A DNA stretch of 31,920 nt. Source: a virus (taxonomy: Duplodnaviria > Heunggongvirae > Uroviricota > Caudoviricetes). A program made the position numbers and the translations under genes. Shown here in pieces: positions 1 through 31,920 of the stretch. The stretch lies in IMG/VR virus record IMGVR_UViG_2534681762_000007. One strand, 5' to 3'. The notes beneath the pieces were generated by a model, which was given only the letters and a program-made list of their open reading frames with translations, did not search any database and was not told where the DNA came from. How positions within the stretch are numbered: the stretch's first letter is position 1; each line of letters starts with the position of its first letter.

Positions 1-1284
1 TTACTTCTTCGCCTCTGCAACCACTTTACTACCCACGCCGCGGTTATTGTATTCCCACATGCGGTTGTAGTTAGTGTCATTCAGATTGCGCTGTATTTCG
101 TCGTTATCATCTACGCTGCCGGTATTACCCGCAAACGGACGATTAGAGATCACCGCATCGGCCCACGGTTTAGCCGTGTTAAAACCTTCGTTGATGGCGC
201 TATCACGGATCACCACCTGACCGTTGGTATTGGCATCAACATCCAGCGAGCGGCCCAGTTGCGCCACACCATCACCGAAAGCATTGAAACGGCTGTTTAC
301 GGCGAGGAAACCGTAGTAAATGTTGGACAGCGTAGCCGGTGCAAACACATACGCTTCTTGCTGAGTACGTGAGTTCACCACGCGGAATTCGGTGTTATCG
401 AACACCACTGCGCCGCGACCAGAAACGATATCCACATCCCCTTCAATGTAGCTGTTGGTCACCAGCGTACGCGGCTGACGATTCGTTTCCAGACGGTTCT
501 GCACACCGCTGTTGGTGACAAAGAAGGTGTTCTGACGACCGAGAATGTTAACGTTGTTAATCTGTACCTGGTCACCATCAGTACGCAGTGCCACCGCCGG
601 ATGGTTACCTGCATCTACGCTATCGCCCAGCGTGTTTTCGATGGTCAGATTTTGCAGTTGCAGGCCATTGTTTTGTGACCAGAAGACCGCAGAGCAGAGA
701 ACACCGATACTGTCGCTGCGTTTGCTCTGGCAGCTATCGTACATATACCACGCTGGTTTACCTGGCATATATTTGCCGCGCGGGTTGACGTCGTGACGCC
801 AGTCGGCAGGGCTCATGCCACCATCAAGGGAAAGCCCAATCTTCACATCAATCGGTTTTTCACCTGTACCGTACAGAGTAATTCCACCCGGAGCGGCAGG
901 GACATATACCGTTCCCTGATACTCACCAGGCATCACGGCAATATACTGGCGCTTGTTGGTACGCTTGATAATTGCCGCATCTACCGCCGCCTGAATCGTG
1001 GTATGCGTTACACCTTGAGTGCCCGCCGGGCCGACAACAAAGTCAGGTTGCGCAGGCAGGGTAATCGGGGAAGGATTCCACGCTGCTGCACCTGGTGTCA
1101 GGGATGCAAAATAGTGTTGAGCATCGAAATTCTGCGCTTCTTTTGCCGACAGAATCGGGCGAGAAGAGGTACCAGGCGCGGTTTGATCAGAAGGACGTTG
1201 ATCGGGCGGGGTTGAGCTACAGGCGGTCAGCGTCACGCCAAAAGCCAATGCCAGCGCCAGACGGGAAACTGAAAATGTGTTCAC
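1..1284 (-). CDS. ybhC: YbhC-type outer-membrane lipoprotein (pectinesterase-fold acyl-CoA thioesterase), host gene flanking attB-lambda
   Basis: 427-aa ORF with signal peptide and lipobox LTAC; matches my memory of E. coli YbhC; starts about 45 bp from the att core. Start codon in sequence is GTG. Confidence 0.85.
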   Translation of the reverse strand: MNTFSVSRLALALAFGVTLTACSSTPPDQRPSDQTAPGTSSRPILSAKEAQNFDAQHYFASLTPGAAAWNPSPITLPAQPDFVVGPAGTQGVTHTTIQAAVDAAIIKRTNKRQYIAVMPGEYQGTVYVPAAPGGITLYGTGEKPIDVKIGLSLDGGMSPADWRHDVNPRGKYMPGKPAWYMYDSCQSKRSDSIGVLCSAVFWSQNNGLQLQNLTIENTLGDSVDAGNHPAVALRTDGDQVQINNVNILGRQNTFFVTNSGVQNRLETNRQPRTLVTNSYIEGDVDIVSGRGAVVFDNTEFRVVNSRTQQEAYVFAPATLSNIYYGFLAVNSRFNAFGDGVAQLGRSLDVDANTNGQVVIRDSAINEGFNTAKPWADAVISNRPFAGNTGSVDDNDEIQRNLNDTNYNRMWEYNNRGVGSKVVAEAKK

Positions 1285-1315
1285 AGGTTGCTCCGGGCTA
1301 TGAAATAGAAAAATG

Positions 1316-1414
1316 AATCCGTTGAAGCCTGCTTTTTTATACTAAGTTGGCATTATAAAAAAGCATTGCTTATCAATTTGTTGCAACGAACAGGTCACTA
1401 TCAGTCAAAATAAA
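1316..1414. other. attL: attL (B-O-P') prophage-host junction; core GCTTTTTTATACTAA at 1331..1345 followed by P' arm
   Basis: Exact 15-bp lambda att core, then GTTGGCATTATAAAAAAGCATTGCTTATCAATTTGTTGCAACGAACAGGTCACTATCAGTCAAAATAAAATCATTATTTG, which I recall as the lambda P' arm. Confidence 0.92.
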
Positions 1415-1418
1415 ATCA

Positions 1419-2489
1419 TTATTTGATTTCAATTTTGTCCCACTCCCTGCCTCTGTCATCACGATACTGTGATGCCATGGTGTCCGACTTATGCCCGAGA
1501 AGATGTTGAGCAAACTTATCGCTTATCTGCTTCTCATAGAGTCTTGCAGACAAACTGCGCAACTCGTGAAAGGTAGGCGGATCCCCTTCGAAGGAAAGAC
1601 CTGATGCTTTTCGTGCGCGCATAAAATACCTTGATACTGTGCCGGATGAAAGCGGTTCGCGACGAGTAGATGCAATTATGGTTTCTCCGCCAAGAATCTC
1701 TTTGCATTTATCAAGTGTTTCCTTCATTGATATTCCGAGAGCATCAACATGCAATGCTGTTGGGATGGCAATTTTTACGCCTGTTTTGCTTTGCTCGACA
1801 TAAAGATATCCATCTACGATATCAGACCACTTCATTTCGCATAAATCACCAACTCGTTGCCCGGTAACAACAGCCAGTTCCATTGCAAGTCTGAGCCAAT
1901 ATGGTGATGATTCTGCTGCTTGATAAATTTTCAGGTATTCGTCAGCCGTAAGTCTTGATCTCCTTACCTCTGATTTTGCTGCGCGAGTGGCAGCGACAGG
2001 GTTTGTTGTTATATGGCCTTCAGCTATTGCCTCTCGGAATGCATCGCTCAGTGTTGATCTGATTAACTTGGCTGACGCCGCCTTGCCCTCGTCTATGTAT
2101 CCATTGAGCATTGCCGCAATTTCTTTTGTGGTGATGTCTTCAAGTGGAGCATCAGGCAGACCCCTCCTTATTGCTTTAATTTTGCTCATGTAATTTATGA
2201 GTGTCTTCTGCTTGATTCCTCTGCTGGCCAGGATTTTTTCGTAGCGATCAAGCCATGAATGTAACGTAACGGAATTATCACTGTTGATTCTCGCTGTCAG
2301 AGGCTTGTGTTTGTGTCCTGAAAATAACTCAATGTTGGCCTGTATAGCTTCAGTGATTGCGATTCGCCTGTCTCGGCCTAATCCAAACTCTTTACCCGTC
2401 CTTGGGTCCCTGTAGCAGTAATATCCATTGTTTCTTATATAAAGGTTAGGGGGTAAATCCCGGCGCTCATGACTTCGCCTTCTTCCCAT
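1419..2489 (-). CDS. int: Lambda integrase (tyrosine recombinase), apparently intact
   Basis: 356-aa ORF MGRRRSHERRDLPPNLYIRNNGYYCYRDPRTGKEF... matching lambda Int; adjacent to attL; start ATG at 2489..2487. Confidence 0.97.
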   Translation of the reverse strand: MGRRRSHERRDLPPNLYIRNNGYYCYRDPRTGKEFGLGRDRRIAITEAIQANIELFSGHKHKPLTARINSDNSVTLHSWLDRYEKILASRGIKQKTLINYMSKIKAIRRGLPDAPLEDITTKEIAAMLNGYIDEGKAASAKLIRSTLSDAFREAIAEGHITTNPVAATRAAKSEVRRSRLTADEYLKIYQAAESSPYWLRLAMELAVVTGQRVGDLCEMKWSDIVDGYLYVEQSKTGVKIAIPTALHVDALGISMKETLDKCKEILGGETIIASTRREPLSSGTVSRYFMRARKASGLSFEGDPPTFHELRSLSARLYEKQISDKFAQHLLGHKSDTMASQYRDDRGREWDKIEIK

Positions 2490-2623
2490 TTCTGATCCTC
2501 TTCAAAAGGCTACCTGTTACTGGTCGATTTAAGTCAACCTTTACCGCTGATTCGTGGAACAGATATTCTCTTCCATCCTTAACCGGAGGAGGGAATATCC
2601 TGCATTCGGGTAATGACTCCAAC

Positions 2624-3127
2624 TTATTGATAGTGTTTTATGTTCAGATAATGCCCGATGACTTTGTCATGCAGCTCCACCGATTTTGAGAACGACAGCG
2701 ACTTCCGTCCCAGCCGTGCCAGGTGCTGCCTCAGATTCAGGTTATGCCGCTCAATTCGCTGCGTATATCGCTTGCTGATTACGTGCAGCTTTCCCTTCAG
2801 GCGGGATTCATACAGCGGCCAGCCATCCGTCATCCATATCACCACGTCAAAGGGTGACAGCAGGCTCATAAGACGCCCCAGCGTCGCCATAGTGCGTTCA
2901 CCGAATACGTGCGCAACAACCGTCTTCCGGAGACTGTCATACGCGTAAAACAGCCAGCGCTGGCGCGATTTAGCCCCGACATAGCCCCACTGTTCGTCCA
3001 TTTCCGCGCAGACGATGACGTCACTGCCCGGCTGTATGCGCGAGGTTACCGACTGCGGCCTGAGTTTTTTAAGTGACGTAAAATCGTGTTGAGGCCAACG
3101 CCCATAATGCGGGCAGTTGCCCGGCAT
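2624..3127 (-). CDS. insB: IS1 InsB (transposase catalytic part, made as InsAB' by frameshift)
   Basis: 167-aa [67 protein letters not shown]... typical IS1 InsB. Confidence 0.93.
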
Positions 3128-3321
3128 CCAACGCCATTCATGGCCATATCAATGATTTTCTGGTGCGTACCGGGTTGAGAAGCGGTGTAAGTGAACTGCA
3201 GTTGCCATGTTTTACGGCAGTGAGAGCAGAGATAGCGCTGATGTCCGGCGGTGCTTTTGCCGTTACGCACCACCCCGTCAGTAGCTGAACAGGAGGGACA
3301 GCTGATAGAAACAGAAGCCAC
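3046..3321 (-). CDS. insA: IS1 InsA (transposition inhibitor / N-terminal part of transposase)
   Basis: 91-aa [46 protein letters not shown]... typical IS1 InsA with zinc finger. Confidence 0.93.
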
Positions 3322-3486
3322 TGGAGCACCTCAAAAACACCATCATACACTAAATCAGTAAGTTGACAGCATCACCCTGCATTCGCGCACCCATCGACGA
3401 ACTGTTTCAAGGCTTCTTGGGCGTCGCTGGCGAGCGTTCCACTCCTGAAGTGTCAAGTACATCGCAAAGTCTCCGCAATTACACGC

Positions 3487-3510
3487 AAGAAAAAACCGCC
3501 ATCAGGCGGC
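3487..3510 (-). terminator. Candidate intrinsic terminator for leftward transcripts upstream of xis
   Basis: Hairpin CCGCC-ATCA-GGCGG (3496..3509) flanked by an A-run on the plus strand (T-run on the minus strand); some Ts also follow on the plus strand. Confidence 0.4.
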
Positions 3511-3751
3511 TTGGTGTTCTTTCAGTTCTTCAATTCGAATATTGGTTACGTCTGCATGTGCTATCTGCGCCCACAGCATCCAGTGGTCATAGCAGTCGCT
3601 GATGTTCTCGGCTTCGATAACTCTGTTGAATGGTTCTCCATTCTATTCACCTGTGACTCGGAAGTGCATTTATCATCTCCATAAAAAAAACTCGCCGTAG
3701 CGAGTTCAGATATAATTTTCACCAAAGGCAGTAGTTGCTTTATGCTAAGAA

Positions 3752-9487: not shown

Positions 9488-10429
9488 TTATTCGAATGGA
9501 AGATCTATTTGCCTTTGAGGATTCAACTGTTTTTTTACATGCTCAATTTCGAATATGGTTTTTATGGCATCTCCGATCATATATTGAGTTACTTTTAAAT
9601 CTACAAGTAACATATCACCTTTAGAAAAATTTAAGGTGTTGTTATCAATATCGCTGATGAATTTCTGGTCTTTTATTTCAGCCAAAAAGCTACTGGCACC
9701 ATCAGAAAACCGCCACCGGCTTCCTTCATTGAAGGAAATATTTTTAATTTGAAGGGCTTTCTCTACTGTGTACTCTGAAATTATTGATTCTGCTGGTAGA
9801 TTGACTTTGAAATAATGTGCTTCTTGCTTGTTGATCGTCATGAATGTCAAACCATCATCGACAGTAGAGGCAAAGCTGTCAATGCCTTCCTGCTCCAATG
9901 GCTTACTTATAACTTCTTGTAATGAAGAGCGAAGTTTAATATTTTTATAAAGTTCAATAACGTTACTGTCGTAGATCTCGCTTTCGTCATCAACAAAGAC
10001 TTCGATGTTGCTATCAGGCAAATTGTGTAATTTTTTTATTTTCCTTGGGCCTATCCATTTTATCAGTTGAATTAGGCCTTTGCATATTTTTTCTTTAGAA
10101 CCAGGACAGAGTCCAATAAAAGCAATCAAATTCGCAGCGGCTGTTGCTGAATCGCCGGATAAAAAATCAACAGCCTGTTTGAACCAAGATGTAGATGAGG
10201 CAACCAGATCTATTCCAAATGAGCCAGCTTTAAATGATGCATTGACTTTTACAGAAACAACAGTCTTGTTTCCGTAGAGAGTTTTACCGGCTTCCTCTAA
10301 TGCATCTGATAGTGATAGAAGGGCAGGAGCAAGGTCTCGCACGTTCATTTCATGCGTTTCCAGTGCCGGACCGTCGTATACTATCCTGAACTTCATATCA
10401 TTGGTTTCCGAATTGTTGCCCGCATCCAT
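9488..10429 (-). CDS. Orphan 313-aa protein of unknown function in the rexAB slot (between cI and PL)
   Basis: Long AT-rich ORF; ATG at 10429 preceded by AGGTGA with 8-nt spacer (the track ORF starts 12 nt upstream at a GTG); no motif assignable by eye; terminator immediately downstream. Confidence 0.75.
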   Translation of the reverse strand: MDAGNNSETNDMKFRIVYDGPALETHEMNVRDLAPALLSLSDALEEAGKTLYGNKTVVSVKVNASFKAGSFGIDLVASSTSWFKQAVDFLSGDSATAAANLIAFIGLCPGSKEKICKGLIQLIKWIGPRKIKKLHNLPDSNIEVFVDDESEIYDSNVIELYKNIKLRSSLQEVISKPLEQEGIDSFASTVDDGLTFMTINKQEAHYFKVNLPAESIISEYTVEKALQIKNISFNEGSRWRFSDGASSFLAEIKDQKFISDIDNNTLNFSKGDMLLVDLKVTQYMIGDAIKTIFEIEHVKKQLNPQRQIDLPFE

Positions 10430-10502
10430 TATGGCATTCACCTGATCACATATACAGTTAATTTACGATATTGTCTTAAATCTTAAAACTTCTATTGTAT
10501 GG

Positions 10503-11195
10503 CTACCCATGCTTCCTATACGTCTGCGGCATGCTCCCAATAACCTTACCGAAGATGAACACCCGGTTCATCTCGTCTTTCTCGATCGGGTCCCACGGCG
10601 AGTAGCTCTTGTTATCAGAGATAACCAGCAGCTTATCCTTCATCATTTGCAGACGCTTTACATGGGCTGTGTCGTCGTACAGAAACGCATAGATACCATC
10701 ACCGTCGAAAGATTTAACAGTGATATCAACGAACAGAAGATCACCTGGTTCGATCGTTCCTGACATGCTGTCACCACGTACGTTAATGATGCGGATATTT
10801 TCTGCCTTCCTGCCATCGAACATGTGACGAGCATCGTCAAACGAGTACTCAACCGAGCGTAGAACTTCTACAAACTCACGGTTGATGACTCCCGGCCCGG
10901 CACTCACTTCTATATCAAGAACGTCAATCTTGAAGTATTTGGGATGGTTGGCAGTAGGCTTCCCTAATTGTTGACCGTCATTTCTCATCGGGCCTATGCC
11001 TGATGAGAGCCACTCTGTTCGAACACCCAATGCATTAGCTATTTCAACAATTTTTGTTGAGCCGCGCGCGTTGCCGCTTGTCAGTCTCCAGATTGTGGGT
11101 TGAGCTACGCCAGACGCCTTTGCAAGAGCGCCTTGAGACATTCCAGATTGTTCCATCGCTAGGTTTAAGCGATCAGCAAGAGTTTCTTTTTTCAT
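10503..11195 (-). CDS. CI-type prophage repressor (N-terminal HTH, C-terminal LexA/S24 autopeptidase domain)
   Basis: HTH region LSQGALAKASGVAQPTIWRL; Ala-Gly cleavage site in VSAGPGV; GDSM serine motif and downstream KRL lysine; divergent from a cro-like gene. Start taken at ATG 11195 (MKKETL); in-frame TTG at 11231 is the alternative. Confidence 0.85.
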   Translation of the reverse strand: MKKETLADRLNLAMEQSGMSQGALAKASGVAQPTIWRLTSGNARGSTKIVEIANALGVRTEWLSSGIGPMRNDGQQLGKPTANHPKYFKIDVLDIEVSAGPGVINREFVEVLRSVEYSFDDARHMFDGRKAENIRIINVRGDSMSGTIEPGDLLFVDITVKSFDGDGIYAFLYDDTAHVKRLQMMKDKLLVISDNKSYSPWDPIEKDEMNRVFIFGKVIGSMPQTYRKHG

Positions 11196-11305
11196 AAGTT
11201 TTAATTTATACGCTTGCGTATTGATGGTCAAAACACGTTTTGCTATTGTTATGATTAATACGCATTGCTATTATTTATTCGTTGCAATACCAATAGGAAT
11301 TGATA
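11196..11305. promoter_or_regulatory. OR region between divergent repressor and cro-like genes (PR/PRM and operators)
   Basis: Plus strand -35 TTGATG (11221..11226), 17-bp spacer, -10 TATTGT (11244..11249) facing the cro-like gene; inverted repeat ATACGC-TT-GCGTAT (11208..11221); TTGCTATTG at 11240..11248 is identical to a 9-mer in the PL region. Confidence 0.55.
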
Positions 11306-14183: not shown

Positions 14184-14516
14184 ATGAACCCTTATATTTA
14201 TCTTGGTGGTGCAATACTTGCAGAGGTCATTGGTACAACCTTAATGAAGTTTTCAGAAGGTTTTACACGGTTATGGCCATCTGTTGGTACAATTATTTGT
14301 TATTGTGCATCATTCTGGTTATTAGCTCAGACGCTGGCTTATATTCCTACAGGGATTGCTTATGCTATCTGGTCAGGAGTCGGTATTGTCCTGATTAGCT
14401 TACTGTCATGGGGACTTTTCGGCCAACGGCTGGACCTGCCAGCCATTATAGGCATGATGTTGATTTGTGCCGGTGTGTTGGTTATTAATTTATTGTCACG
14501 AAGCACACCACATTAA
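14184..14516 (+). CDS. emrE: Small multidrug resistance efflux transporter EmrE
   Basis: 110-aa product MNPYIYLGGAILAEVIGTTLMKFSEGFTRLWPSVGTIICYCASFWLLAQTLAYIPTGIAYAIWSGVGIVLISLLSWG... matches E. coli EmrE with 4 TM helices; the track ORF starts 54 nt upstream. Confidence 0.95.
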   Translation: MNPYIYLGGAILAEVIGTTLMKFSEGFTRLWPSVGTIICYCASFWLLAQTLAYIPTGIAYAIWSGVGIVLISLLSWGLFGQRLDLPAIIGMMLICAGVLVINLLSRSTPH

Positions 14517-14546
14517 AAATAATTTGTTTCTAAACGACTAAAATAT

Positions 14547-14585
14547 GGAGGCTCTTATATTTATATGAGCCTCGTTTTATGCTTT
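14547..14585 (+). terminator. Intrinsic terminator after emrE
   Basis: Stem GGAGGCTC / GAGCCTC (14547..14573) followed by GTTTTATGCTTTTTG. Confidence 0.7.
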
Positions 14586-14772
14586 TTGTTAATGTCTTTA
14601 TTTTTTTATGTATTCTTTTGTGCTTTCAAGATTATGGCGTAAGAAAATTGCAATACGATTATTGTTGTATATTCAAGATAATGTGACCTTAATTGTCTTT
14701 TTAAATAAAAATTAAACAAAAATTATATCCCACCACTAAGGTTTATAAAAGCATACGTTAGCAGGTGTCACC

Positions 14773-16299
14773 ATGAAAAAAGCCATAGCATATATGCGAT
14801 TTTCATCACCAGGTCAGATGTCTGGCGACTCATTAAACCGACAGAGAAGACTTATTGCTGAATGGTTAAAGGTAAATAGTGATTATTATCTTGATACCAT
14901 AACATATGAAGATTTAGGATTAAGTGCATTCAAAGGAAAGCATGCACAATCAGGAGCTTTTTCGGAATTTTTAGATGCTATAGAGCATGGTTATATATTG
15001 CCAGGAACTACATTGTTAGTTGAAAGTCTGGACAGACTTTCAAGAGAAAAAGTCGGTGAAGCGATTGAACGTCTGAAATTGATTTTGAATCACGGTATTG
15101 ATGTTATAACTCTTTGCGACAATACAGTCTATAATATTGACTCTTTGAATGAGCCATATTCATTAATAAAAGCCATACTTATAGCACAAAGGGCAAATGA
15201 AGAAAGCGAGATAAAGTCAAGTCGGGTTAAATTATCATGGAAGAAAAAACGGCAGGATGCACTGGAATCAGGTACGATTATGACGGCGTCTTGTCCGAGA
15301 TGGCTCTCCTTAGATGACAAAAGAACGGCTTTTGTTCCAGACCCCGACAGGGTGAAAACTATTGAGCTAATTTTTAAACTCAGGATGGAAAGGCGCTCAT
15401 TGAATGCAATAGCCAAGTATTTAAATGATCATGCTGTAAAGAATTTCTCAGGAAAAGAAAGTGCATGGGGACCTTCTGTAATTGAAAAATTATTAGCGAA
15501 TAAAGCTCTGATAGGTATATGCGTACCTTCATATCGTGCAAGAGGTAAAGGAATAAGTGAAATCGCTGGCTATTATCCCAGAGTCATATCAGATGATTTG
15601 TTTTACGCTGTACAGGAAATTCGGTTGGCACCTTTTGGTATTAGCAATAGTAGCAAAAATCCTATGTTGATAAATCTACTTCGAACAGTTATGAAGTGCG
15701 AGGCTTGTGGTAATACCATGATTGTTCATGCGGTATCTGGAAGTTTGCATGGCTATTATGTTTGTCCGATGAGAAGACTGCATCGATGTGACAGGCCATC
15801 AATAAAGAGAGATTTGGTTGATTATAATATCATTAATGAGTTGCTTTTTAATTGTAGTAAAATCCAACCAGTTGAAAACAAGAAAGATGCTAATGAAACT
15901 TTAGAGTTGAAAATTATTGAGCTCCAGATGAAAATTAATAATTTAATTGCTGCATTATCTGTTGCGCCTGAAGTTACCGCTATAGCAGAAAAAATCAGAG
16001 TATTAGATAAGGAATTACGAAGGGCTTCTGTATCATTAAAAACTTTGAAGAGTAAAGCGGTGAGTTCACTTGGTGATTTTCATGCTATTGACTTAACCAG
16101 TAAAAATGGGCGAGAGCTATGTCGTACACTTGCCTATAAAACATTCGAAAAAATCATAATCAATACAGATAATAAAACCTGTGATATCTATTTTATGAAT
16201 GGCATTGTTTTTAAACACTATCCTTTAATGAAAACAATATCCGCCCAGCAGGCGATAAGTACTCTCAAATATATGGTTGATGGTGAGGTTTATTTTTGA
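14773..16299 (+). CDS. ybcK: Large serine recombinase (YbcK-type, DLP12-like)
   Basis: 508-aa AT-rich ORF MKKAIAYMRFSSPGQMSGDSLNRQRRLIAEWL... with resolvase-type N-terminal catalytic Ser region and Cys-rich recombinase domain (CEACGNTM...CPMRRLHRC); matches my memory of K-12 YbcK. Confidence 0.9.
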   Translation: MKKAIAYMRFSSPGQMSGDSLNRQRRLIAEWLKVNSDYYLDTITYEDLGLSAFKGKHAQSGAFSEFLDAIEHGYILPGTTLLVESLDRLSREKVGEAIERLKLILNHGIDVITLCDNTVYNIDSLNEPYSLIKAILIAQRANEESEIKSSRVKLSWKKKRQDALESGTIMTASCPRWLSLDDKRTAFVPDPDRVKTIELIFKLRMERRSLNAIAKYLNDHAVKNFSGKESAWGPSVIEKLLANKALIGICVPSYRARGKGISEIAGYYPRVISDDLFYAVQEIRLAPFGISNSSKNPMLINLLRTVMKCEACGNTMIVHAVSGSLHGYYVCPMRRLHRCDRPSIKRDLVDYNIINELLFNCSKIQPVENKKDANETLELKIIELQMKINNLIAALSVAPEVTAIAEKIRVLDKELRRASVSLKTLKSKAVSSLGDFHAIDLTSKNGRELCRTLAYKTFEKIIINTDNKTCDIYFMNGIVFKHYPLMKTISAQQAISTLKYMVDGEVYF

Positions 16300-16410
16300 G
16301 TAATAATCACTTTTTCAACCGTGCTATAGTAAGAAAGTTAGGTAAGTACAATAAAATTATCTATCCTGAACGAAGCGTCCTGAGCTATGGTTTTACTATA
16401 GAGACTGCCA

Positions 16411-16734
16411 ATGGATGCTGGCGTTCTCGTTCTAGCAGTTCAACAATACCCAATCACAAAACAATTCACTGATAACGAACTTTGCACACTCGCCTGGTTA
16501 TGGCGAGCAGGGAATGTGATGTTAATTACCTACCAGAACGTTACTCCTCTTCTTCAGGTTGCGGAGCATCGTGAAGCTGGTCGCTTCACTTCTATCGAGC
16601 AAGAATATCCCCAGATACTCAATAAGGCACAGGCAATCCTTGCCAGAGAAACGGCACATGTAAAATTCCGGCCGTGGCAGGATGATAAGTGGAGTCGAGT
16701 TTTGCCGCATTTACGTTCGGATCGATTACAGTAG
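16411..16734 (+). CDS. Hypothetical 107-aa ORF (uncertain coding status)
   Basis: Open frame MDAGVLVLAVQQYPITKQFTDNELCTLAWLWRAGNVMLITY... with no recognisable RBS or homolog; the only ORF between ybcK and the ORF-free stretch. Confidence 0.35.
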   Translation: MDAGVLVLAVQQYPITKQFTDNELCTLAWLWRAGNVMLITYQNVTPLLQVAEHREAGRFTSIEQEYPQILNKAQAILARETAHVKFRPWQDDKWSRVLPHLRSDRLQ

Positions 16735-17195
16735 ATTCCAATTAACAATGAGAAACACATAGCCACCCCGTGGTATTGAAACCATATAATGTTGGATTTG
16801 AAAACAGATCTTTTTCCATGTATTAATAACTACATCCCCGCGAGTGATTCAAAAAGGAGGGCCCAATTTTGTCCGAGTTTTTGTATTCCCCCGCATGCCG
16901 CTGCGGAGCACTACATCTGAGTGTCTGACTAGGGGATAAAATTAGACTGGATAGTGAGAAGAAAGTGGCGTGCTAGGCTGTGCCGAGTGCTACCAGTACA
17001 CCCTGGGGGTGTGCAGCTTTCGCCGAGACTGTAGTGGGTATCGGTTAATGCACGAAAAACCGAGAGGTCAGACAACCAATTTGCCGTAGGATTGTTTCCG
17101 GTGCGATACCGGTGTACTAACTGAAAGCAATGCGAAAAAGCATAAACTCGGTCCTTCAGTCGCCCTACACACTATTTACTAAGAAGGGCTAAAGC

Positions 17196-17552
17196 ATGGA
17201 TACAATTATCACATGGATGGGAGATCGTCTGTTGGGGTGGATAACAAACAAATCCGATCTGCGGCAGAGGGCAATCACTGGATTAACTCCTGCGATTTAT
17301 TCAACAATTTTATATACTGAAAAATTAAAACGTGGTGAGCCTAATAACCCAAACGAAGAAGAAAAACTTTATAGGCTTTGGTATGAAGCGTCTTCCCAAG
17401 TCGTAGACTTTGATCGAGAGCTGGCTAAAAGATGTTTAGATAAATCAGAATATTGGCTTCATTCTGAATTATATAGCCCTGAGAAAGTTGGAGAGCTAAA
17501 CATTTCTTTGGTTGGTATGAAGGCAACGCTTGAAGGAATAAAGCACAATTAA
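17196..17552 (+). CDS. Hypothetical 118-aa protein (AT-rich orphan)
   Basis: ORF MDTIITWMGDRLLGWITNKSDLRQRAITGLTPAIYSTILYTEKLKRGEPNNPNEEEK... preceded by AAGAAGGG about 8 nt before ATG; no homolog recognised. Confidence 0.5.
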   Translation: MDTIITWMGDRLLGWITNKSDLRQRAITGLTPAIYSTILYTEKLKRGEPNNPNEEEKLYRLWYEASSQVVDFDRELAKRCLDKSEYWLHSELYSPEKVGELNISLVGMKATLEGIKHN

Positions 17553-17641
17553 AACCTTTGATTTGCGATAATCAACTCGCCATAATCATGTCATCGGAGC
17601 CTGAACAACTCCGGTGACTTCTGCGCTAAACGGGGACGTTT

Positions 17642-17743
17642 ATGCGCACACACAATCCAAACTCTCTTCTCCCTCCACAGATGCAGAAATGCACCTGCGA
17701 TATATTGTATCCAGCGTTTGACCTCTGCGGAGGTGAAGCGTGA
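17642..17743 (+). CDS. ylcH: Small protein YlcH (33 aa)
   Basis: [33 protein letters not shown]; position just upstream of ybcN as in DLP12 as I recall it. Confidence 0.55.
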
Positions 17744-18195
17744 ATCTCCCACAAGATGGCATCAAATTACATCGCGGTAACTTCACCGCTATCGGTCGGC
17801 AGATCCAGCCTTATCTGGAGGAGGGCAAATGCTTTCGCATGGTGCTTAAACCGTGGCGTGAGAAACGCAGTCTTTCCCAGAATGCACTCAGCCACATGTG
17901 GTACAGCGAAATCAGTGAATACCTCATCAGCAGGGGTAAAACGTTCGCTACTCCAGCTTGGGTAAAAGATGCTCTCAAACACACATATCTCGGTTATGAA
18001 ACCAAAGACCTGGTTGATGTCGTAACCGGTGATATCACCACTATCCAGTCGTTACGCCATACCTCCGATCTTGATACCGGAGAGATGTATGTCTTCCTGT
18101 GTAAGGTTGAAGCCTGGGCGGTGAATATTGGCTGCCACCTGACTATTCCGCAGAGCTGCGAGTTCCAGCTGCTCCGCGACAAGCAGGAGGCGTAA
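17740..18195 (+). CDS. ybcN: YbcN / NinB-family protein
   Basis: 151-aa ORF (GTG start) [61 protein letters not shown]... matches my memory of K-12 YbcN. Confidence 0.85.
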
Positions 18196-18365
18196 TGGCT
18201 ACACCGCTTATTCGTGTCATGAACGGACACATCTACAGAGTACCAGATCGTCGTAAGCGTAAACCGGAGCTGAAGCCTTCCGAAATACCAACACTGCTCG
18301 GATATACCGCCAGCCTGGTTGATAAAAAATGGTTGCGACTGGCAGCAAGGAGGAATCATGGCTGA
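18195..18365 (+). CDS. ninE: NinE
   Basis: 56-aa [59 protein letters not shown]; ATG overlaps the ybcN stop (TAATG). Confidence 0.85.
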   Translation: MATPLIRVMNGHIYRVPDRRKRKPELKPSEIPTLLGYTASLVDKKWLRLAARRNHG

Positions 18366-18648
18366 TTTGAGAAAAGCAGCGCGTAGTCGGGAATGCCAGG
18401 TAAGAATCCCTGGCGTATGTAATGGCAACCCTGAAACGTCTGTACTGGCACATATCCGGCTGACTGGATTGTGCGGCACCGGTACCAAACCGCCAGACCT
18501 GATTGCCACCATTGCATGTTCTGCCTGCCACGACGAAATCGACCGCCGCACACATTTTGTCGATGCTGCATATGCAAAAGAATGCGCGCTGGAAGGTATG
18601 GCGAGAACACAGGTTATCTGGCTGAAAGAGGGGGTTATTAAGGCGTGA
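18358..18648 (+). CDS. ybcO: YbcO (DUF1364 putative nuclease, nin region)
   Basis: 96-aa [67 protein letters not shown]...; the track lists it with a 13-codon upstream extension. Confidence 0.85.
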
Positions 18649-19007
18649 ATACCTACAGCATCACATTACCCTGGCCTCCGAGCAATAATCGCTATTACCG
18701 CCATAATCGCGGGCGCACGCACGTCAGCGCAGAGGGGCAGGCATACCGCGATAACGTCGCCCGAATCATTAAAAACGCAATGCTGGATATCGGCCTGGCT
18801 ATGCCTGTGAAAATCCGCATTGAGTGCCACATGCCGGATCGCCGTCGCCGTGATCTGGATAATCTGCAAAAAGCCGCTTTTGACGCACTCACTAAAGCAG
18901 GTTTCTGGCTGGATGATGCTCAGGTCGTTGATTACCGCGTTGTGAAGATGCCTGTTACCAAAGGTGGGAGGCTGGAACTGACCATCACCGAAATGGGGAA
19001 TGAATGA
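18645..19007 (+). CDS. rusA: Holliday junction resolvase RusA
   Basis: 120-aa [96 protein letters not shown]... matches RusA. Confidence 0.95.
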
Positions 19008-19144
19008 TGTTTGAGTTTTATATGGCAGAACGTCTTCGCCACCGCTGGGGGCGTCTGCGCTTATATCGTTTCCCCGGTTCTGTTTTGACCGATTACCGAA
19101 TACTGAAGAATTACGCCAAAACCCTGACAGGAGCAGGAGTATGA
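19004..19144 (+). CDS. ylcG: YlcG small protein
   Basis: 46-aa [49 protein letters not shown] overlapping the rusA stop. Confidence 0.7.
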
Positions 19145-19229
19145 AGTCAGAGATAACAATCAACTAATACTGTTTCGTTGATTTTTGCTTGTAATTGGCG
19201 TTCTGGTCTGATTTTTGTGGAGTAAGTTG

Positions 19230-19613
19230 ATGCGTGATATTCAGATGGTTCTTGAGCGTTGGGGAGCGTGGGCGGCTAATAATCATGAAGATGTGACCTG
19301 GTCGTCCATTGCCGCCGGTTTTAAGGGATTAATTACTTCAAAAGTAAAATCTCGCCCGCAATGTTGTGACGATGACGCGATGATCATTTGCGGGTGCATG
19401 GCCCGTCTGAAAAAGAACAACAGCGATTTGCACGATTTATTAGTAGATTATTATGTAGTCGGTATGACATTCATGTCACTGGCAGGTAAGCATTGCTGCT
19501 CTGATGGTTATATCGGGAAAAGGTTACAGAAGGCTGAGGGCATAATTGAAGGGATGTTAATGGCATTAGATATCCGGTTAGAGATGGATATCGTTGTTAA
19601 TAACTCTAATTAA
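19230..19613 (+). CDS. quuD: Late-gene antiterminator Q homolog (QuuD-type)
   Basis: 127-aa product [62 protein letters not shown]...; GGAG about 8 nt upstream of ATG 19230. Confidence 0.85.
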
Positions 19614-19800
19614 TACGCCAATTATTTACTAAAAGTTATTAAAAATGGGGCGTTGAAACGCCCCCAAAAATAAAGGGTAATATATAACAGAAGGTTTGTA
19701 TAGTTAGAAGCAAGGTTGTGCTTCTAAAGGAAGTGGCTTGAGGGAGCCACTTATATGTTGGGGAGGCAAAGCCTCCCACAACATATCTTTTAGTAATCAA
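19614..19800 (+). promoter_or_regulatory. Putative late promoter / qut / tR'-like region downstream of Q
   Basis: Position equivalent to lambda PR'-tR'; extended palindrome ATATGTTGGGGAGGC-AAA-GCCTCCCACAACATAT (19754..19787) followed by CTTTT on the plus strand; promoter hexamers not crisp. Confidence 0.35.
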
Positions 19801-19801
19801 A
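19638..19801 (-). ncRNA. ipeX: Possible IpeX-like sRNA / nmpC 3' UTR ending at an intrinsic terminator
   Basis: Minus-strand terminator GGGGCG-TTTCAA-CGCCCC plus ATTTTTAAT (19638..19664) lies about 140 nt past the nmpC stop; I recall IpeX as a ~167-nt RNA at the nmpC 3' end in DLP12. Confidence 0.3.
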
Positions 19802-20884
19802 TTAGAACTGGTAAACCATACCTACAGCAACGATATCATCGGTAGCAACGCCAGATGCTTTCGTGAAATCGCTCTTATCAATCAGGTTGATTTTGTAGTC
19901 AACAAAAGTGGACATATTTTTGTTGAAGTAATAGGTTGCACCTACATCAACATATTCAACCAGGTCCTGATCACCCCAAACACCCAAGTCTTTTCCTTTA
20001 GAATGCAGGTAAGCAACGGATGGACGCAGGCCGAAGTCGAACTGATATTGTGCAACAGCTTCGAAGTTTTGTGCTTTGTTGGCAATATGGTTATTACCAA
20101 AAACAGTCATGTTCTGGGTTTCAGAATAGGTGGTGGCCAGATAGATGTTGTTCGCATCATATTTCAGACCAGCTGCCCATACTTCAGCATTTTGACCAGA
20201 AGCATTCAGACCGTTGTTACCGTAGATAACCTGATTATTAGTGCGATCAGATTTAGCATAGGTTGCACCCACGCCGAATCCTTCATACTCATAAGTAGTT
20301 GAGAAACCGAAACCATCGCCATTAGCTTCAGTTACTTCATTTCGGTCATTTTTGCCCTGATACTGAGCTGCAAAGTTCAGGCCATCAACCAGACCAAAGA
20401 AGTCGTTGTTACGATAAGTTGCAACACCTGTGGTGCGACCAGTCATGAATACATCTGTTTGGGTCCAGGTATCGCCACCGAATTCTGGCAGAACGTCAGT
20501 CCACGCACCGATGTCGTATGCTACACCGTAGTTACGGCCGTAATCGATTGAGCCGTAGTCACCGAATTTCAGGCCTGCAAATGCAAGACGGGTTTTGTCT
20601 TTGGAGGAACCTTGAGATTCAGCGCGGTTGCCTTTGAATTCATATTCCCACTGACCGAAACCAGTCAGTTGATCGTTGATTTGGGTTTCACCTTTGAAGC
20701 CAAGACGGGCATAAGTAGTATCACCATCATCTGCATCATTAGAGGAGAAGTAGTGCTTAGCATTAACTTTCCCGTACAGATCCAGCTTGTTACTGTCTTT
20801 ATTATAAATTTCAGCTGCCTGAGCAGACATCGCCATCAGTACTGATGCAGCTACAGCAGAAATTGCCACTGTTAATTTTTTCAT
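19802..20884 (-). CDS. nmpC: Outer-membrane general porin NmpC/Lc-type, intact
   Basis: 360-aa ORF with signal peptide [23 protein letters not shown] and C-terminal ...VAVGMVYQF; typical OmpC/OmpF-family sequence; no IS interruption. Confidence 0.92.
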
Positions 20885-21472
20885 CGTGAGCCCTTTTTTT
20901 TGAACTATTATTAAAAAATGATGTCACTGCGCGATAAATATTCATCTAATCAATGTGATTATTTCAAGATGTAAGTTTTAGTTTCTCATTTAATTTGTGA
21001 AGTAGATCTCTATTTTTATCTGAACTTTTTCTATCGAAACCTATTTATGGCTCTTATTTGAACAAAAATAAACCTATTAGCTAATTTATATTAATGGCTG
21101 TTATTTATGGGGGTTCTATAATTCGGCAGTTTAATTTAAATCAACTAAAAATAACGTTTGAAATTATTTATTGGTTATTTGTTGAGGTTTTCTTATGTAT
21201 TTGTGGTGGAGTTTTGAACACTCGGTAGCATTCTCATAAATATCATTCAGTGGTTTACGTACGTAAAAAATTGGTTATGCTGTTAAGAGTGGTTACTTCG
21301 TCACACAGCTTAAACCCGCCGTCGAGCTGGTTTTTCCATTTTTTGAGTCTCGATATTAGCTGATAACTCAATACCTGAGTTATTCACTGACTCCGAGTCT
21401 GTTACGTTTCTGCTTTTTTGCGATACGTTGTATTCCCTCAATTTACACCCGCTTTGTCTGCGAGGTGGGGTT

Positions 21473-21688
21473 ATGAAATCCATGGATAAGTTAACAACGG
21501 GTGTCGCCTATGGCACCTCAGCAGGTAGTGCCGGTTACTGGTTTTTACAGCTGCTCGATAAAGTCACGCCCTCACAGTGGGCAGCAATAGGTGTGCTGGG
21601 TAGCCTGGTATTTGGCCTGCTGACGTACCTGACAAACCTTTATTTCAAGATTAAAGAAGATAAGCGCAAGGCTGCGAGAGGTGAATAA
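21473..21688 (+). CDS. essD: Holin (EssD-type)
   Basis: 71-aa product [71 protein letters not shown]; GAGGTGGGG RBS; first gene of the lysis cassette. Confidence 0.9.
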
Positions 21689-22185
21689 TGCCTCCATCAT
21701 TACGAAAAGCCGTTGCTGCTGCTATTGGTGGTGGAGCAATTGCTATAGCATCAGTGTTAATCACTGGCCCAAGTGGTAACGATGGTCTGGAAGGTGTCAG
21801 CTACATACCATACAAAGATATTGTTGGTGTATGGACTGTATGTCACGGGCATACAGGAAAAGACATCATGCTCGGTAAAACGTATACCAAAGCAGAATGC
21901 AAAGCCCTCCTGAATAAAGACCTTGCCACGGTCGCCAGACAAATTAACCCGTACATAAAAGTTGATATACCGGAAACAACGCGCGGCGCTCTTTACTTGT
22001 TCGTTTACAACGTGGGCGCTGGCAATTTCAGAACATCGACGCTTCTTCGCAAAATAAACCAGGGCGATATCAAAGGCGCATGTGATCAGCTACGTCGCTG
22101 GACATATGCTGGCGGTAAGCAATGGAAAGGTCTCATGACTCGTCGTGAGATTGAGCGTGAAATCTGTTTGTGGGGTCAGCAATGA
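21688..22185 (+). CDS. rrrD: Phage lysozyme / endolysin (RrrD-type, N-terminal signal-anchor-release segment)
   Basis: 165-aa [60 protein letters not shown]... follows the holin. Confidence 0.92.
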
Positions 22186-22643
22186 ACAGAGTAACCGCGA
22201 TTATCTCCGCTCTGGTTATCTGCATCATCGTTTGCCTGTCATGGGCTGTTAATCATTACCGTGATAACGCCATTACCTACAAAGCCCAGCGCGACAAAAA
22301 TGCCAGAGAACTGAAGCTGGCGAACGCGGCAATTACTGACATGCAGATGCGTCAGCGTGATGTTGCTGCGCTCGATGCAAAATACACGAAGGAGTTAGCT
22401 GATGCGAAAGCTGAAAATGATGCTCTGCGTGATGATGTTGCCGCTGGTCGTCGTCGGTTGCACATCAAAGCAGTCTGTCAGTCAGTGCGTGAAGCCACCA
22501 CCGCCTCCGGCGTGGATAATGCAGCCTCCCCCCGACTGGCAGACACCGCTGAACGGGATTATTTCACCCTCAGAGAGAGGCTGATCACTATGCAAAAACA
22601 ACTGGAAGGAACCCAGAAGTATATTAATGAGCAGTGCAGATAG
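22182..22643 (+). CDS. rzpD: Rz-type i-spanin
   Basis: 153-aa [58 protein letters not shown]... with N-terminal TM segment and coiled-coil; overlaps endolysin stop. Confidence 0.85.
22402..22584 (+). CDS. rzoD: Rz1-type o-spanin lipoprotein embedded in +1 frame of Rz
   Basis: 60-aa [27 protein letters not shown]... with lipobox VVGC and proline-rich body, fully nested in rzpD. Confidence 0.8.
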
Positions 22644-24459: not shown

Positions 24460-28085
<3,626 letters not shown>

Positions 28086-28105
<20 letters not shown>

Positions 28106-29405
28106 TCTCCCGCATATTGCCAGTATGGCCTTTAATGAGCCGCTGATGCTTGAACCCGCCTATGCGCGGGTTTTCTTTTGTGCGCTTGCAGGCCAGCTTG
28201 GGATCAGCCGCCTGACGGATGCGGTGTCCGGCGACAGCCTGACTGCCGGAGAGGCACCCGCGGCGCTGGCGTTATCCGTTGATGATGACGGACCACGACA
28301 GGCCCGCAGTTATCAGGTCATGAACGGCATCGCCGTGCTGCCGGTGTCCGGCACGCTGGTCAGCCGGACGCGGGCGCTGCAGCCGTATTCGGGGATGACC
28401 GGTTACAACGGCATTATCGCCCGTCTGCAACAGGCTGCCAGCGATCCGATGGTGGACGGCATTCTGCTGGATATGGACACACCGGGCGGGATGGTGGCGG
28501 GAGCATTTGACTGTGCTGACATCATCGCCCGTGTGCGAGACATAAAACCGGTATGGGCGCTGGCCAACGACATGAACTGCAGTGCAGGTCAGCTGCTTGC
28601 CAGCGCCGCCTCCCGGCGTCTGGTCACGCAGACCGCCCGGACAGGCTCCATCGGCGTCATGATGGCTCACAGTAATTACGGTGCTGCGCTGGAGAAACAG
28701 GGCGTGGAAATCACACTGATTTACAGCGGCAGCCATAAGGTGGATGGCAACCCCTACAGCCATCTACCGGATGATGTCCGGGAAACACTGCAGTCCCGGA
28801 TGGATGCAACCCGCCGGATGTTTGCACAGAAGGTGTCGGCATATACCGGCCTGTCCGTGCAGGCTGTGCTGGATACCGAGGCTGCAGTGTACAGCGGTCA
28901 GGAGGCCATTGATGCCGGACTGGCTGATGAACTTGTGAACAGTACCGATGCGATCACCGTCATGCGTGATGCACTGGATGCACGTAAATCCCGTCTCTCA
29001 GGAGGGCGAATGACCAAAGAGACTCAATCAACAACTGTTTCAGCCATTGCTTCGCAGGCTGACGTTACTGGCGTGGTGCAAGCGACGGAGGGCGAGAACG
29101 CCAGCGCTGCGCAGCCGGACGTGAACGCGCAGATCACCGCAGCGGTTGCGGCAGAAAACAGTCGCATTATGGGGATCCTCAACTGTGAGGAGGCTCACGG
29201 ACGCGAAGAACAGGCATGCGTGCTGGCCGAAACCCCCGGTATGACCGTGGAAACGGCCCGCCGTATTCTGGCCGCAGCACCACAGAGTGCACAGGCGCGC
29301 AGTGACACTGCGTTGGATCGTCTGATGCAGGGGGCACCGGCACCGCTGGCTGCAGGTAACCCGGCATCTGATGCCGTTAACGATTTGCTGAACACACCAG
29401 TGTAA
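28086..29405 (+). CDS. C: Head protease/scaffold protein C (S49 peptidase family)
   Basis: 439-aa product (GTG start) TAELRNLPHIASMAFNEPLMLEPAYARVFFCALAGQLGIS... matches lambda C; currently read through from the frameshifted B as a 948-aa ORF. Confidence 0.9.
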
Positions 29406-29802: not shown

Positions 29803-30070
29803 ATGTCGATGTACACAACCGCCCAGCTGCTGGCGGCAAATGAGCAGAAATTTAAGTTTGATCCGCTGTTTCTGCGTCTCTTTTTCCGTGAGAGCTATCC
29901 CTTCACCACGGAGAAAGTCTATCTCTCACAAATTCCTGGACTGGTAAACATGGCGCTGTACGTTTCGCCAATTGTTTCCGGTGAGGTTATCCGTTCCCGT
30001 GGCGGCTCCACCTCTGAATTTACGCCGGGTTATGTCAAGCCGAAGCATGAGGTGAATCCGCAGATGACCC
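29803..30070 (+). pseudogene. E: Major capsid protein E, only N-terminal ~89 codons; truncated by IS66-family insertion
   Basis: MSMYTTAQLLAANEQKFKFDPLFLRLFFRESYPFTTEKVYLSQIPGLVNMALYVSPIVSGEVIRSRGGSTSEFTPGYVKPKHEVNPQMT matches lambda E; sequence then switches to IS DNA beginning GTAACCGGCTC at 30071. Confidence 0.88.
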
Positions 30071-30123
30071 GTAACCGGCTCATTTAAACCGTCTGGTCTG
30101 TTTCCTCCGGCTCTACAAAAATA

Positions 30124-30801
30124 ATGTCCATCATTTTTAATGGACACTATCGTATGAAACACCGGACCTGGATCACTGAAGCTTTACGTCTTCACTTTGA
30201 AGAACATTTACCCCGGGTTGTGGCCGGGCGTCGCCTGGGTGTACCAAAATCAACAGTTTGTAGTATGTTCGTGCGCTTTCGGAGAGCTGGCCTTTCGTGG
30301 CCTTTGCCCGCAGGCATGTCGGAGCAGGAACTTGATGCCTGCCTTTACGGACAATTTTCCACGGTACCAGTCGTACGTCCTGAAAGCACCGTTATATCCG
30401 AAGCCCCCGTGGTAAAAAACCGTCCCCGGCGGCCCAACTTCCCTTATGAGTTTAAAATCGCCTTAGTGGAGCAGTCACTGCAGCCCGGAGCCTGTGTGGC
30501 GCAGATCGCCCGGGAAAACGGAATCAACGATAACCTGCTCTTCAACTGGCGCCATCAATACCGGAAAGGTGGCCTGCTGCCTTCCGGAAAAAATATGCCG
30601 GCACTGCTTCCCGTGACGTTAACGCCGGAGCCGGATAATAAAATCCCGGCCCCCGCACAGGAACCAGAGCAGATAAATACACCGTCCGACAGTCTGTGTT
30701 GTGAGCTGGTTCTGCCGGCCGGAACTCTCAGGCTTAAAGGTAAACTGACGCCGGCGTTATTACAGACACTTATCCGCGAAATAAAAGGGAGCAGCCACTG
30801 A
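30124..30801 (+). CDS. IS66-family accessory protein TnpA (orf1)
   Basis: ORF containing ...RPNFPYEFKIALVEQSLQPGACVAQIARENGINDNLLFNWRHQYRKGG... typical of IS66 orf1; start uncertain (ATG 30124 or 30154); stop overlaps next ATG (ATGA). Confidence 0.75.
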   Translation: MSIIFNGHYRMKHRTWITEALRLHFEEHLPRVVAGRRLGVPKSTVCSMFVRFRRAGLSWPLPAGMSEQELDACLYGQFSTVPVVRPESTVISEAPVVKNRPRRPNFPYEFKIALVEQSLQPGACVAQIARENGINDNLLFNWRHQYRKGGLLPSGKNMPALLPVTLTPEPDNKIPAPAQEPEQINTPSDSLCCELVLPAGTLRLKGKLTPALLQTLIREIKGSSH

Positions 30802-31148
30802 TGATATCTCTCCCTGCAGGTTCGCGTATCTGGCTGGTTGCAGGTATCACCGATATGCGAAATGGCTTTAACGGCCTGGCATCAAAAGTTCAGAACGTCC
30901 TGAAGGATGACCCGTTCTCCGGACACCTGTTCATCTTCCGCGGACGCCGGGGTGACCAGATAAAAGTGTTGTGGGCTGACAGTGACGGACTGTGCCTCTT
31001 CACCAAACGCCTGGAGCGGGGCCGCTTCGTCTGGCCAGTCACCCGTGACGGCAAGGTGCACCTTACTCCGGCTCAGTTATCCATGCTTCTTGAAGGTATC
31101 AACTGGAAGCACCCGAAACGAACGGAACGCGCTGGAATCCGCATATAA
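30801..31148 (+). CDS. IS66-family TnpB (orf2)
   Basis: 115-aa ORF MISLPAGSRIWLVAGITDMRNGFNGLASKVQNVLKDDPFSGHLFIFRGRRGDQIKVLWADSDGLCLFTKRLERGRFVWP... characteristic of IS66 TnpB. Confidence 0.9.
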   Translation: MISLPAGSRIWLVAGITDMRNGFNGLASKVQNVLKDDPFSGHLFIFRGRRGDQIKVLWADSDGLCLFTKRLERGRFVWPVTRDGKVHLTPAQLSMLLEGINWKHPKRTERAGIRI

Positions 31149-31167
31149 CCCGTTGTAAAGTGAGGAT

Positions 31168-31920
31168 ATGGACACCTCACTTGCTCATGAGAACGCCCGC
31201 CTGCGGGCACTGTTGCAGACGCAACAGGACACCATACGCCAGATGGCTGAATACAACCGCCTGCTCTCACAGCGGGTGGCGGCTTATGCTTCCGAAATCA
31301 ACCGGCTGAAGGCGCTGGTTGCGAAACTGCAACGTATGCAGTTCGGTAAAAGCTCAGAAAAACTTCGTGCAAAAACCGAACGGCAGATACAGGAAGCACA
31401 GGAGCGAATCAGCGCACTTCAGGAAGAAATGGCGGAAACGCTGGGTGAGCAATATGACCCGGTACTGCCATCCGCCCTGCGCCAGTCTTCAGCCCGTAAA
31501 CCGTTACCGGCCTCACTTCCCCGTGAAACCCGGGTTATCCGGCCGGAAGAGGAATGCTGTCCTGCCTGTGGTGGTGAACTCAGTTCTCTGGGATGTGATG
31601 TGTCAGAGCAACTGGAGCTTATCAGCAGCGCCTTTAAGGTTATCGAAACACAACGTCCGAAACTGGCCTGTTGTCGGTGCGACCATATCGTGCAGGCACC
31701 AGTACCTTCAAAACCCATTGCACGCAGTTATGCCGGAGCGGGGCTCCTGGCCCATGTCGTCACCGGAAAATATGCAGACCATCTGCCGTTATACCGCCAG
31801 TCAGAGATATACCGCCGTCAGGGTGTGGAGCTGAGCCGTGCCACACTGGGGCGCTGGACAGGTGCCGTTGCTGAACTACTGGAGCCGCTGTATGACGTCC
31901 TGCGCCAGTATGTGCTGATG
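31168..31920 (+). CDS. IS66-family transposase TnpC (orf3), 5' part only; runs off window
   Basis: Open frame from ATG 31168: MDTSLAHENARLRALLQTQQDTIRQMAEYNRLLSQRV...CPACGGELSSLGCDVSEQLELI...; coiled-coil then zinc-finger as in IS66 TnpC; no stop before window end. Confidence 0.8.
   Translation, partial: MDTSLAHENARLRALLQTQQDTIRQMAEYNRLLSQRVAAYASEINRLKALVAKLQRMQFGKSSEKLRAKTERQIQEAQERISALQEEMAETLGEQYDPVLPSALRQSSARKPLPASLPRETRVIRPEEECCPACGGELSSLGCDVSEQLELISSAFKVIETQRPKLACCRCDHIVQAPVPSKPIARSYAGAGLLAHVVTGKYADHLPLYRQSEIYRRQGVELSRATLGRWTGAVAELLEPLYDVLRQYVLM

Follow-up and report, generated by a model that had tools for sequence, protein, structure and literature searches.

IS1 insertion in the excisionase gene of a lambda-type prophage of Escherichia coli ThroopD

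Overview of the prophage

A clean transposition of IS1 knocks out the excisionase gene xis of a prophage in Escherichia coli ThroopD, an ETEC reference isolate. The stretch of DNA analysed, called the window here, consists of the last 31,920 bases of the 523,891-bp draft contig AQEJ01000005.1 (assembly GCA_000355115.2), and its features are collected in Table 1. Three of its genes carry lesions, namely xis, the portal gene and gene E for the major capsid protein, as expected of a defective prophage. On the whole evidence, we consider it very probable that this is a defective lambda-type prophage in an early phase of decay through IS elements and deletion, in which the xis::IS1 insertion does not act as one reversible lock.

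Table 1. Features of the window, with positions counted from its first base.
Feature	Position	Strand	Basis or remark
ybhC, host gene, gal-side chromosomal flank of the lambda attachment site	1..1284	-	427 aa, 100% identity to AH62 ybhC
attL (B arm, core, lambda P' arm)	1320..1425	+	identity to lambda
attL 15-bp core, GCTTTTTTATACTAA	1331-1345		
int, full-length lambda-type tyrosine integrase, 356 aa	1419..2489	-	353/356 identity to lambda Int
xis 3' part, last base of codon 26 (repeated in the left copy) to codon 72 and stop	2467..2608	-	AH62
Candidate hybrid promoter (weak) directed at int, IS1-xis junction	2594..2622	-	sequence reading, speculative
Left target-site duplication copy, CTGCATTCG, 9 bp	2600..2608	.	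one copy in the AH62 empty site
IS1 (IS1A-like, 768 bp)	2609..3376	-	766/768 identity to K-12 IS1A; Pfam domains
insB' frame, within IS1	3127-2624	-	
A6C frameshift motif, within IS1	3070-3064	-	
insA, within IS1	3321-3046	-	
Right target-site duplication copy, CTGCATTCG, 9 bp	3377..3385	.	
xis 5' part, codons 1-28 and two bases of codon 29	3377..3462	-	reads on into IS1
TTGC-N6-TTGC motif, just upstream of the xis ATG	3475..3488	-	identical to lambda
Portal-protease fusion ORF, 948 aa	26559..29405	+	alignment with AH62
Major capsid gene E, cut (codons 1-89 and one base)	29803..30070	+	Pfam Phage_cap_E
IS66-family element (tnpA-like, TnpB_IS66, transposase start)	30071..31920	+	Pfam HTH_Tnp_1, TnpB_IS66

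Structure of the IS1 insertion

The IS1 copy begins with GGTAATGACTCC and ends with CAGCATCACC (2609-3376), both ends directly abut the perfect 9-bp repeat CTGCATTCG, and the chance of a 9-bp identity at two fixed positions is about 4e-6. The original prediction had put an IS1 at these positions inside xis, flanked by a perfect 9-bp duplication, and this was borne out, with two copies of the repeat in the window and one in the related AH62 prophage. It had further set the insertion at about codon 30, which was right as to the gene, while the exact place is codon 29, behind its second base.

All features of the IS1 family for which we looked were present, namely the length, the inverted repeats, insA and insB' with the A6C shift, and the 9-bp duplication; published IS1 elements are 768 bp long and produce duplications of 8-9 bp (PMC12428005). 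The element shares its direction of transcription with xis and int, the Pfam domains Zn_ribbon_InsA, HTH_Tnp_IS1 and DDE_Tnp_IS1 were recognized in it, and a simulated -1 frameshift at the A6C motif gave a 232-aa InsAB'. Its terminal inverted repeats are imperfect (17/23 positions match). Compared with IS1A of K-12, with which it shares the 768-bp length, the inverted repeats, insA/insB' and the A6C site, the window copy has a base change at 3115, which is silent in insA and lies outside InsAB', and a change at 3366, at the eleventh position of the left inverted repeat, which reduces the match of the repeats from 18/23 to 17/23. The predicted coding capacity of the window copy is the same as that of IS1A, with one change in the left inverted repeat. 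The internal bases of a multi-copy IS1 in a draft assembly could be a consensus of several copies.

When the interrupted gene was translated, the product was Xis1-29 followed by VMLSTY (35 aa in total, six residues encoded by IS1, stop at 3355-3357), which covers just positions 1-32 of the 77-position Pfam Exc profile. With the break in codon 29, no uninterrupted xis frame encodes the DNA-binding domain together with the C-terminal tail. The part of xis behind the element encodes residues 27-72 just as they stand in AH62 Xis (100% identity). As predicted, the frame is otherwise intact: removal of IS1 and one repeat gave a 219-bp gene encoding a 72-aa Xis, which matched the Pfam Exc profile (E 4e-41) and the PDB entries 1PM6 and 1LX8, and which is identical to lambda Xis at 71/72 residues, the sole change being G59S; the full-length Xis structure 1PM6 likewise carries S59. 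Exact-protein look-ups with the 35-aa truncated Xis and with the 51-aa ORF that runs over the left junction found no match for either, and gene callers probably skip both.

Empty site and distribution of the insertion

In E. coli AH62, a near-identical prophage aligns with window positions 1-2608 at 99.9% and picks up again at 3376, and the two alignments overlap by 10 bases, which are the 9-bp target plus one coincident base. At this site the xis gene of AH62 is uninterrupted and holds a single copy of the target, which argues that the IS1 insertion in ThroopD is no assembly chimera. AH62 served as empty-site reference for xis only; as an intact reference prophage it was dropped, being itself without a tail region.

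An artefact in which mis-joined repeat-containing contigs put IS1 into xis deserved consideration, as the source is a draft assembly, another IS breaks the same contig, and IS1 is a multi-copy element, for which the median E. coli genome has about 11 matching places. However, the two flanks are neighbouring halves of one gene, joined to the element with an exact 9-bp duplication of a single-copy target, and such a pattern is the signature of real transposition, whereas the collapse of repeats gives none. We therefore regard an assembly artefact as extremely improbable and treat the insertion as real.

When the entire xis::IS1 stretch was searched against 5,426 complete E. coli genomes, IS1 copies swamped the result, so 200-nt queries over the junctions were used, and neither junction was found in these 5,426 genomes. 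All apparent full-coverage matches of the junctions turned out to be pairs of pieces that together cover a longer stretch than the query, and none of them counts as the same insertion. In an exact scan, the 28-mer over the left junction was absent from the GTDB species representatives and from the JGI metagenome contigs. As far as the collections searched show, the xis::IS1 insertion appears to be specific to ThroopD.

Among the same 5,426 complete genomes, there were nine with an end of IS1 no more than a few hundred bases away from xis. Strain MB10 carries an IS1A inside the 5' end of int, strain 13C1065T an IS1B about 50 bp upstream of an intact xis, with the lysis genes directly next to it and an adjacent deletion, and strain EA13 an IS1A upstream of xis, followed by corA, again with an adjacent deletion. 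The xis gene is intact in AH62 and in the ETEC strains E7476 and TW14425. It is also intact in a 43-kb circular record of strain SZQ1, which has the same int-xis early-left module; this record was considered as a direct ancestor of the ThroopD prophage and rejected, since its head genes differ.

Integrase, attachment site and promoters of int

Homology to lambda sets in precisely with the first base of the core, position 27724, and the two sequences then agree through the P' arm and into int until they first differ at window position 1748. The core and the P' arm are identical to lambda, in keeping with the original prediction of an intact attL. The expectation of a full-length int was likewise confirmed: all six catalytic residues are present in the 356-aa product (R212, K235, H308, R311, H333 and Y342), Pfam recognized the arm-binding, central and catalytic domains, and the three changes from lambda Int are H164P, C197Y and I248V. 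Exactly this Int allele was found in 321 blocks of the protein-position collection, which points to a common circulating allele; among the places listed it lies beside a 72-aa Exc in 2/3 and beside ybhC in 3/3. With its cognate attachment site adjoining int, the locus reads as lambda's own site-specific recombination module, inserted at the usual attachment site of this phage.

We take the TTGC-N6-TTGC motif at 3488-3475 to be the cII box of the lambda pI promoter for int, and pL presumably lies further upstream than this box. The pI transcript of lambda starts just inside xis. On this assignment, IS1 separates int from both presumed promoters, pI and pL, and therefore the intact int ORF is no evidence of Int production. 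IS1 is polar, and the synthesis of Int from pI would probably be lower, while N-antiterminated transcripts from pL may still cross IS1 into int.

The original prediction had also held that Int reactions are still possible, for instance the integration of an incoming lambda into the resident att sites. The first part stands as far as the int and attL sequences are intact, but it is not secure, given the position of IS1 between int and pI/pL. For the second part the resident int is unneeded, as an incoming phage brings its own Int and Xis. The Xis of an incoming lambda could complement the resident xis defect in trans.

Further lesions and make-up of the prophage

ThroopD carries a lambdoid prophage of mosaic composition. 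It has a lambda int-xis-exo-bet-gam-kil left arm, an immunity region of its own that encodes an HTH/S24 repressor, the replication genes O/P, terminase and head genes of lambda type, and a DLP12-type block made up of emrE, ybcK, ybcN, ninE, ybcO, rusA, ylcG, quuD, a porin gene, essD and rrrD. Most of its genes are 96-100% identical to those of AH62, E7476 and TW14425. The rest of E, the tail region and attR, if present, would lie past the contig end, outside the window.

In the portal gene, a 55-bp deletion between 27952 and 27953 causes a frameshift at codon 465 into the frame of the S49 protease. The extra 55 bp were present in all of the complete genomes listed (15/15), with both sides matching at 100%, and the 948-aa fusion product is on record only for the ThroopD assembly and for the runs SRR447115 and SRR447116. 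The frameshifted portal gene is probably non-functional. The fusion keeps the whole conserved Pfam portal domain and translation of the protease from its own start is still possible, and the deletion may be less harmful for these reasons.

The gene for the major capsid protein is interrupted in codon 90 by the IS66-family element, which reaches the end of the window and thus of the contig; on its left side this element aligns with an IS66-like copy that strain EC4 carries. The Phage_cap_E match covers positions 1-88 of 329 only, and the alignment with lambda E breaks there. A search for the E/IS66-family junction in complete genomes gave 0 matches. The interruption of E is predicted to suffice to prevent particle formation. 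All three lesions, in xis, the portal gene and E, seem to be confined to ThroopD.

These lesions bear on the claim of the original prediction that a single, clean, reversible-looking event has locked the prophage in the chromosome, that is, that an otherwise functional lambda prophage is held by xis::IS1 while Int and attL stay active. The insertion is indeed clean and perfectly duplicated, int and attL are intact in sequence, and xis would be restored exactly by a precise loss of IS1 between the 9-bp repeats. However, the portal gene and E each bear one more inactivating lesion, a 55-bp deletion and an IS66-family insertion respectively, and these contradict a single lock; with E interrupted and the portal gene frameshifted, the restoration of xis would not yield a viable phage. 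Moreover, no attR is present in the window, which stops at the contig end, IS1 stands between int and its promoters, and the reaction with an incoming phage would run on the Int which that phage supplies. We thus judge it very improbable that xis::IS1 is the one lock on an otherwise functional prophage, and we retain the reading of a defective prophage in early decay.

The junction as a candidate promoter

The ends of IS1 contain an outward -35 box and are able to form hybrid promoters (PMC8764528). At the left junction we noted a weak candidate, directed towards int and composed of TTGGAG (2622-2617, in the right inverted repeat of IS1), a spacer of 17 nt and GATATT (2599-2594, in xis). It agrees with the consensus at 7/12 positions, and a promoter scan made no call for this candidate at 2622-2594.

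Such a junction would bear on whether the insertion was favoured by selection as a means of grounding the prophage, possibly together with an IS1-xis promoter for constitutive int. Apart from the candidate itself and the known capacity of IS1 ends, the occurrence of IS1 in or beside the int-xis module in other strains, the precedent of the IS2-linked int-constitutive mutants of lambda, and the grounded-prophage hypothesis, which recognises the loss of excision functions as a route to 'grounded' prophages (PMC6379469), are in line with this idea. Yet the match of 7/12 and the silence of the scan weigh against the promoter, and abundant IS elements in dispensable DNA are what neutral decay predicts too. 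In addition, the repressor, O, P, Q, holin and endolysin genes appear intact, and with replication in place the induction of the prophage would probably still kill the host cell. Grounding alone would leave induction lethal, which weakens the idea that the insertion shields the host.

We consequently hold a domestication by selection to be unlikely. The stricter form of the idea, in which the IS1-xis junction is a working hybrid promoter that provides constitutive Int without Xis, and in which the repeated IS1 hits around int-xis result from selection that favours prophages immobilised at the lambda site and not from neutral decay, appears to us to have quite a slim prospect of being right. 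If it were true, the hybrid promoter would create a natural integration-only state akin to the int-constitutive IS2 mutants of lambda. The preferred reading remains early decay through IS elements and deletion.

Consequences for excision

In lambda, assembly of the excisive complex requires that Xis, along with Int, IHF and Fis, bind the P arm of attR, and a xis-null prophage excises poorly. In ThroopD an IS1A-type element transposed into codon 29 of xis and made its usual 9-bp target duplication. The remaining 29-residue fragment of Xis would have lost most of the DNA-binding domain and the entire C-terminal tail, and the 35-aa product would be unable to build the excisive complex on the attR P arm, by which the attL x attR excision would be strongly lowered. 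Even after an excision, no particles would be expected from a prophage with a truncated capsid protein and a frameshifted portal protein.

The loss of Xis thus probably impairs excision, and the earlier claim that it hinders efficient excision agrees with established lambda genetics. How far the prophage is immobilised is a question of degree. The Sakai prophages Sp4 and Sp14, which are without a functional Xis, are reported to be excised by Int alone (PMC2669165), and therefore a residual excision is possible and 'locked' has to be understood in relative terms.

Since its Int, Xis and att are all those of lambda, the module could offer a natural xis-null allele on which to study the residual excision by Int alone, provided that the capsid and portal lesions are allowed for. 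The prophage at the lambda site of ThroopD deserves the annotation 'defective', and beyond annotation the finding has little import. It adds one more documented way in which a lambda-type prophage may be immobilised.

Comparison with known systems

Among the closest counterparts are the xis-minus lysogens of lambda, which have the same Int/Xis/att module and have lost the same gene, and in which the expected excision defect likewise goes along with encoded integration functions. They differ from the ThroopD prophage in that the lesion here is a natural IS1 that sits between int and its promoters, and in that it resides in a mosaic lambdoid prophage whose late-regulatory region is of DLP12 type and whose head genes bear extra lesions.

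A second parallel is provided by the int-constitutive mutants of lambda. The title of Pilacinski et al. 1977 (Gene 2:61) ties IS2 to such mutants, and in that work the IS2 reportedly lay in xis and supplied a promoter for int. As in ThroopD, an IS lies in the int-xis control region; in the lambda mutants it reportedly alters the expression of int and xis, whereas here the element is IS1 and the promoter at its junction is a weak candidate.

Taken as a whole, xis::IS1 is a fresh case of a well-known form of prophage decay. Grounded or cryptic lambdoid prophages have lost excision or morphogenesis genes by IS elements and deletion while keeping many early genes (PMC6379469, PMC2669165). The DLP12-type elements have the emrE-ybcK-ybcN-ninE-ybcO-rusA-ylcG-quuD-porin-essD-rrrD block in common with the ThroopD prophage. 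In contrast to DLP12, Rac and the Sakai Sp prophages, the ThroopD prophage stands much earlier in decay, with most of its genes more than 96% identical to those of its relatives.

Structure of the IS1 copy and the region upstream of xis

The IS1 copy that splits xis differed from IS1A of E. coli K-12 at only two positions, window 3366 and window 3115. The former corresponds to position 11 in the left inverted repeat of IS1 and falls within the region of the element's own promoter. The latter causes no amino acid change in insA and is not part of InsAB'. Just upstream of xis and of the cII-binding box of the int promoter pI, we found a terminator-like hairpin stretch, which had the same sequence as in lambda (see the table below).

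Further IS1 insertions inside or beside the lambda-type int-xis module were observed in three other E. coli strains: MB10, in which the 5' end of int contains IS1, 13C1065T, in which IS1 is located about 50 bp upstream of xis and an adjoining deletion extends to the lysis genes, and EA13, in which IS1 lies upstream of xis and is followed by corA.

Features of the prophage (window coordinates)
Feature	Position	Strand	Remarks
Terminator-like hairpin	3493-3512	minus	GC-rich, followed by a T run
317-aa ORF	9488-10441	minus	immediately follows the cI-like repressor gene (10503-11231)
DLP12-type late-regulatory region	14184-22200		emrE, ybcK, ybcN, ninE, ybcO, rusA, ylcG, quuD, porin gene, essD, rrrD
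OmpC/NmpC-like porin gene	19802-20884	minus	within the DLP12-type region
Portal-S49 protease fusion ORF	26559-29405		948 aa; 55-bp deletion between 27952 and 27953
Major capsid gene E and inserted IS66-family element	29803-31920		E interrupted within codon 90

Structural genes and related prophages

The deletion in the portal gene shifted its frame into that of the S49 protease, resulting in the fusion ORF. The deleted stretch was flanked by GCGGTGA and GCGGCGA, which form a short imperfect repeat. Records of the fusion product came only from ThroopD, the strain studied here, and from the runs SRR447115 and SRR447116. The IS66-family element in E comprised a tnpA-like ORF, TnpB_IS66 and the start of the transposase; because the draft contig stops within this element, the remaining prophage and attR lie outside the sequence seen.

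The related prophage of E. coli AH62 was without all that lies between the capsid gene and a partial tail-fibre gene, and is therefore also defective. In strain SZQ1, a 43,337-bp circular record, assembled as a separate circle and labelled as a plasmid, contained a lambdoid genome that had this int-xis early-left module and in which xis was intact.

Comparison with lambda and DLP12

The ORF beside the repressor gene matched PDC-S42, a candidate defence family of PADLOC (E 3e-86), as well as phrog_3243 (function unknown), and a Pfam search of it gave no match; in lambda, the same position is held by rexA and rexB. At the lambda attachment site, this prophage combines a late-regulatory block of the DLP12 type with lambda's own int-xis-att module.
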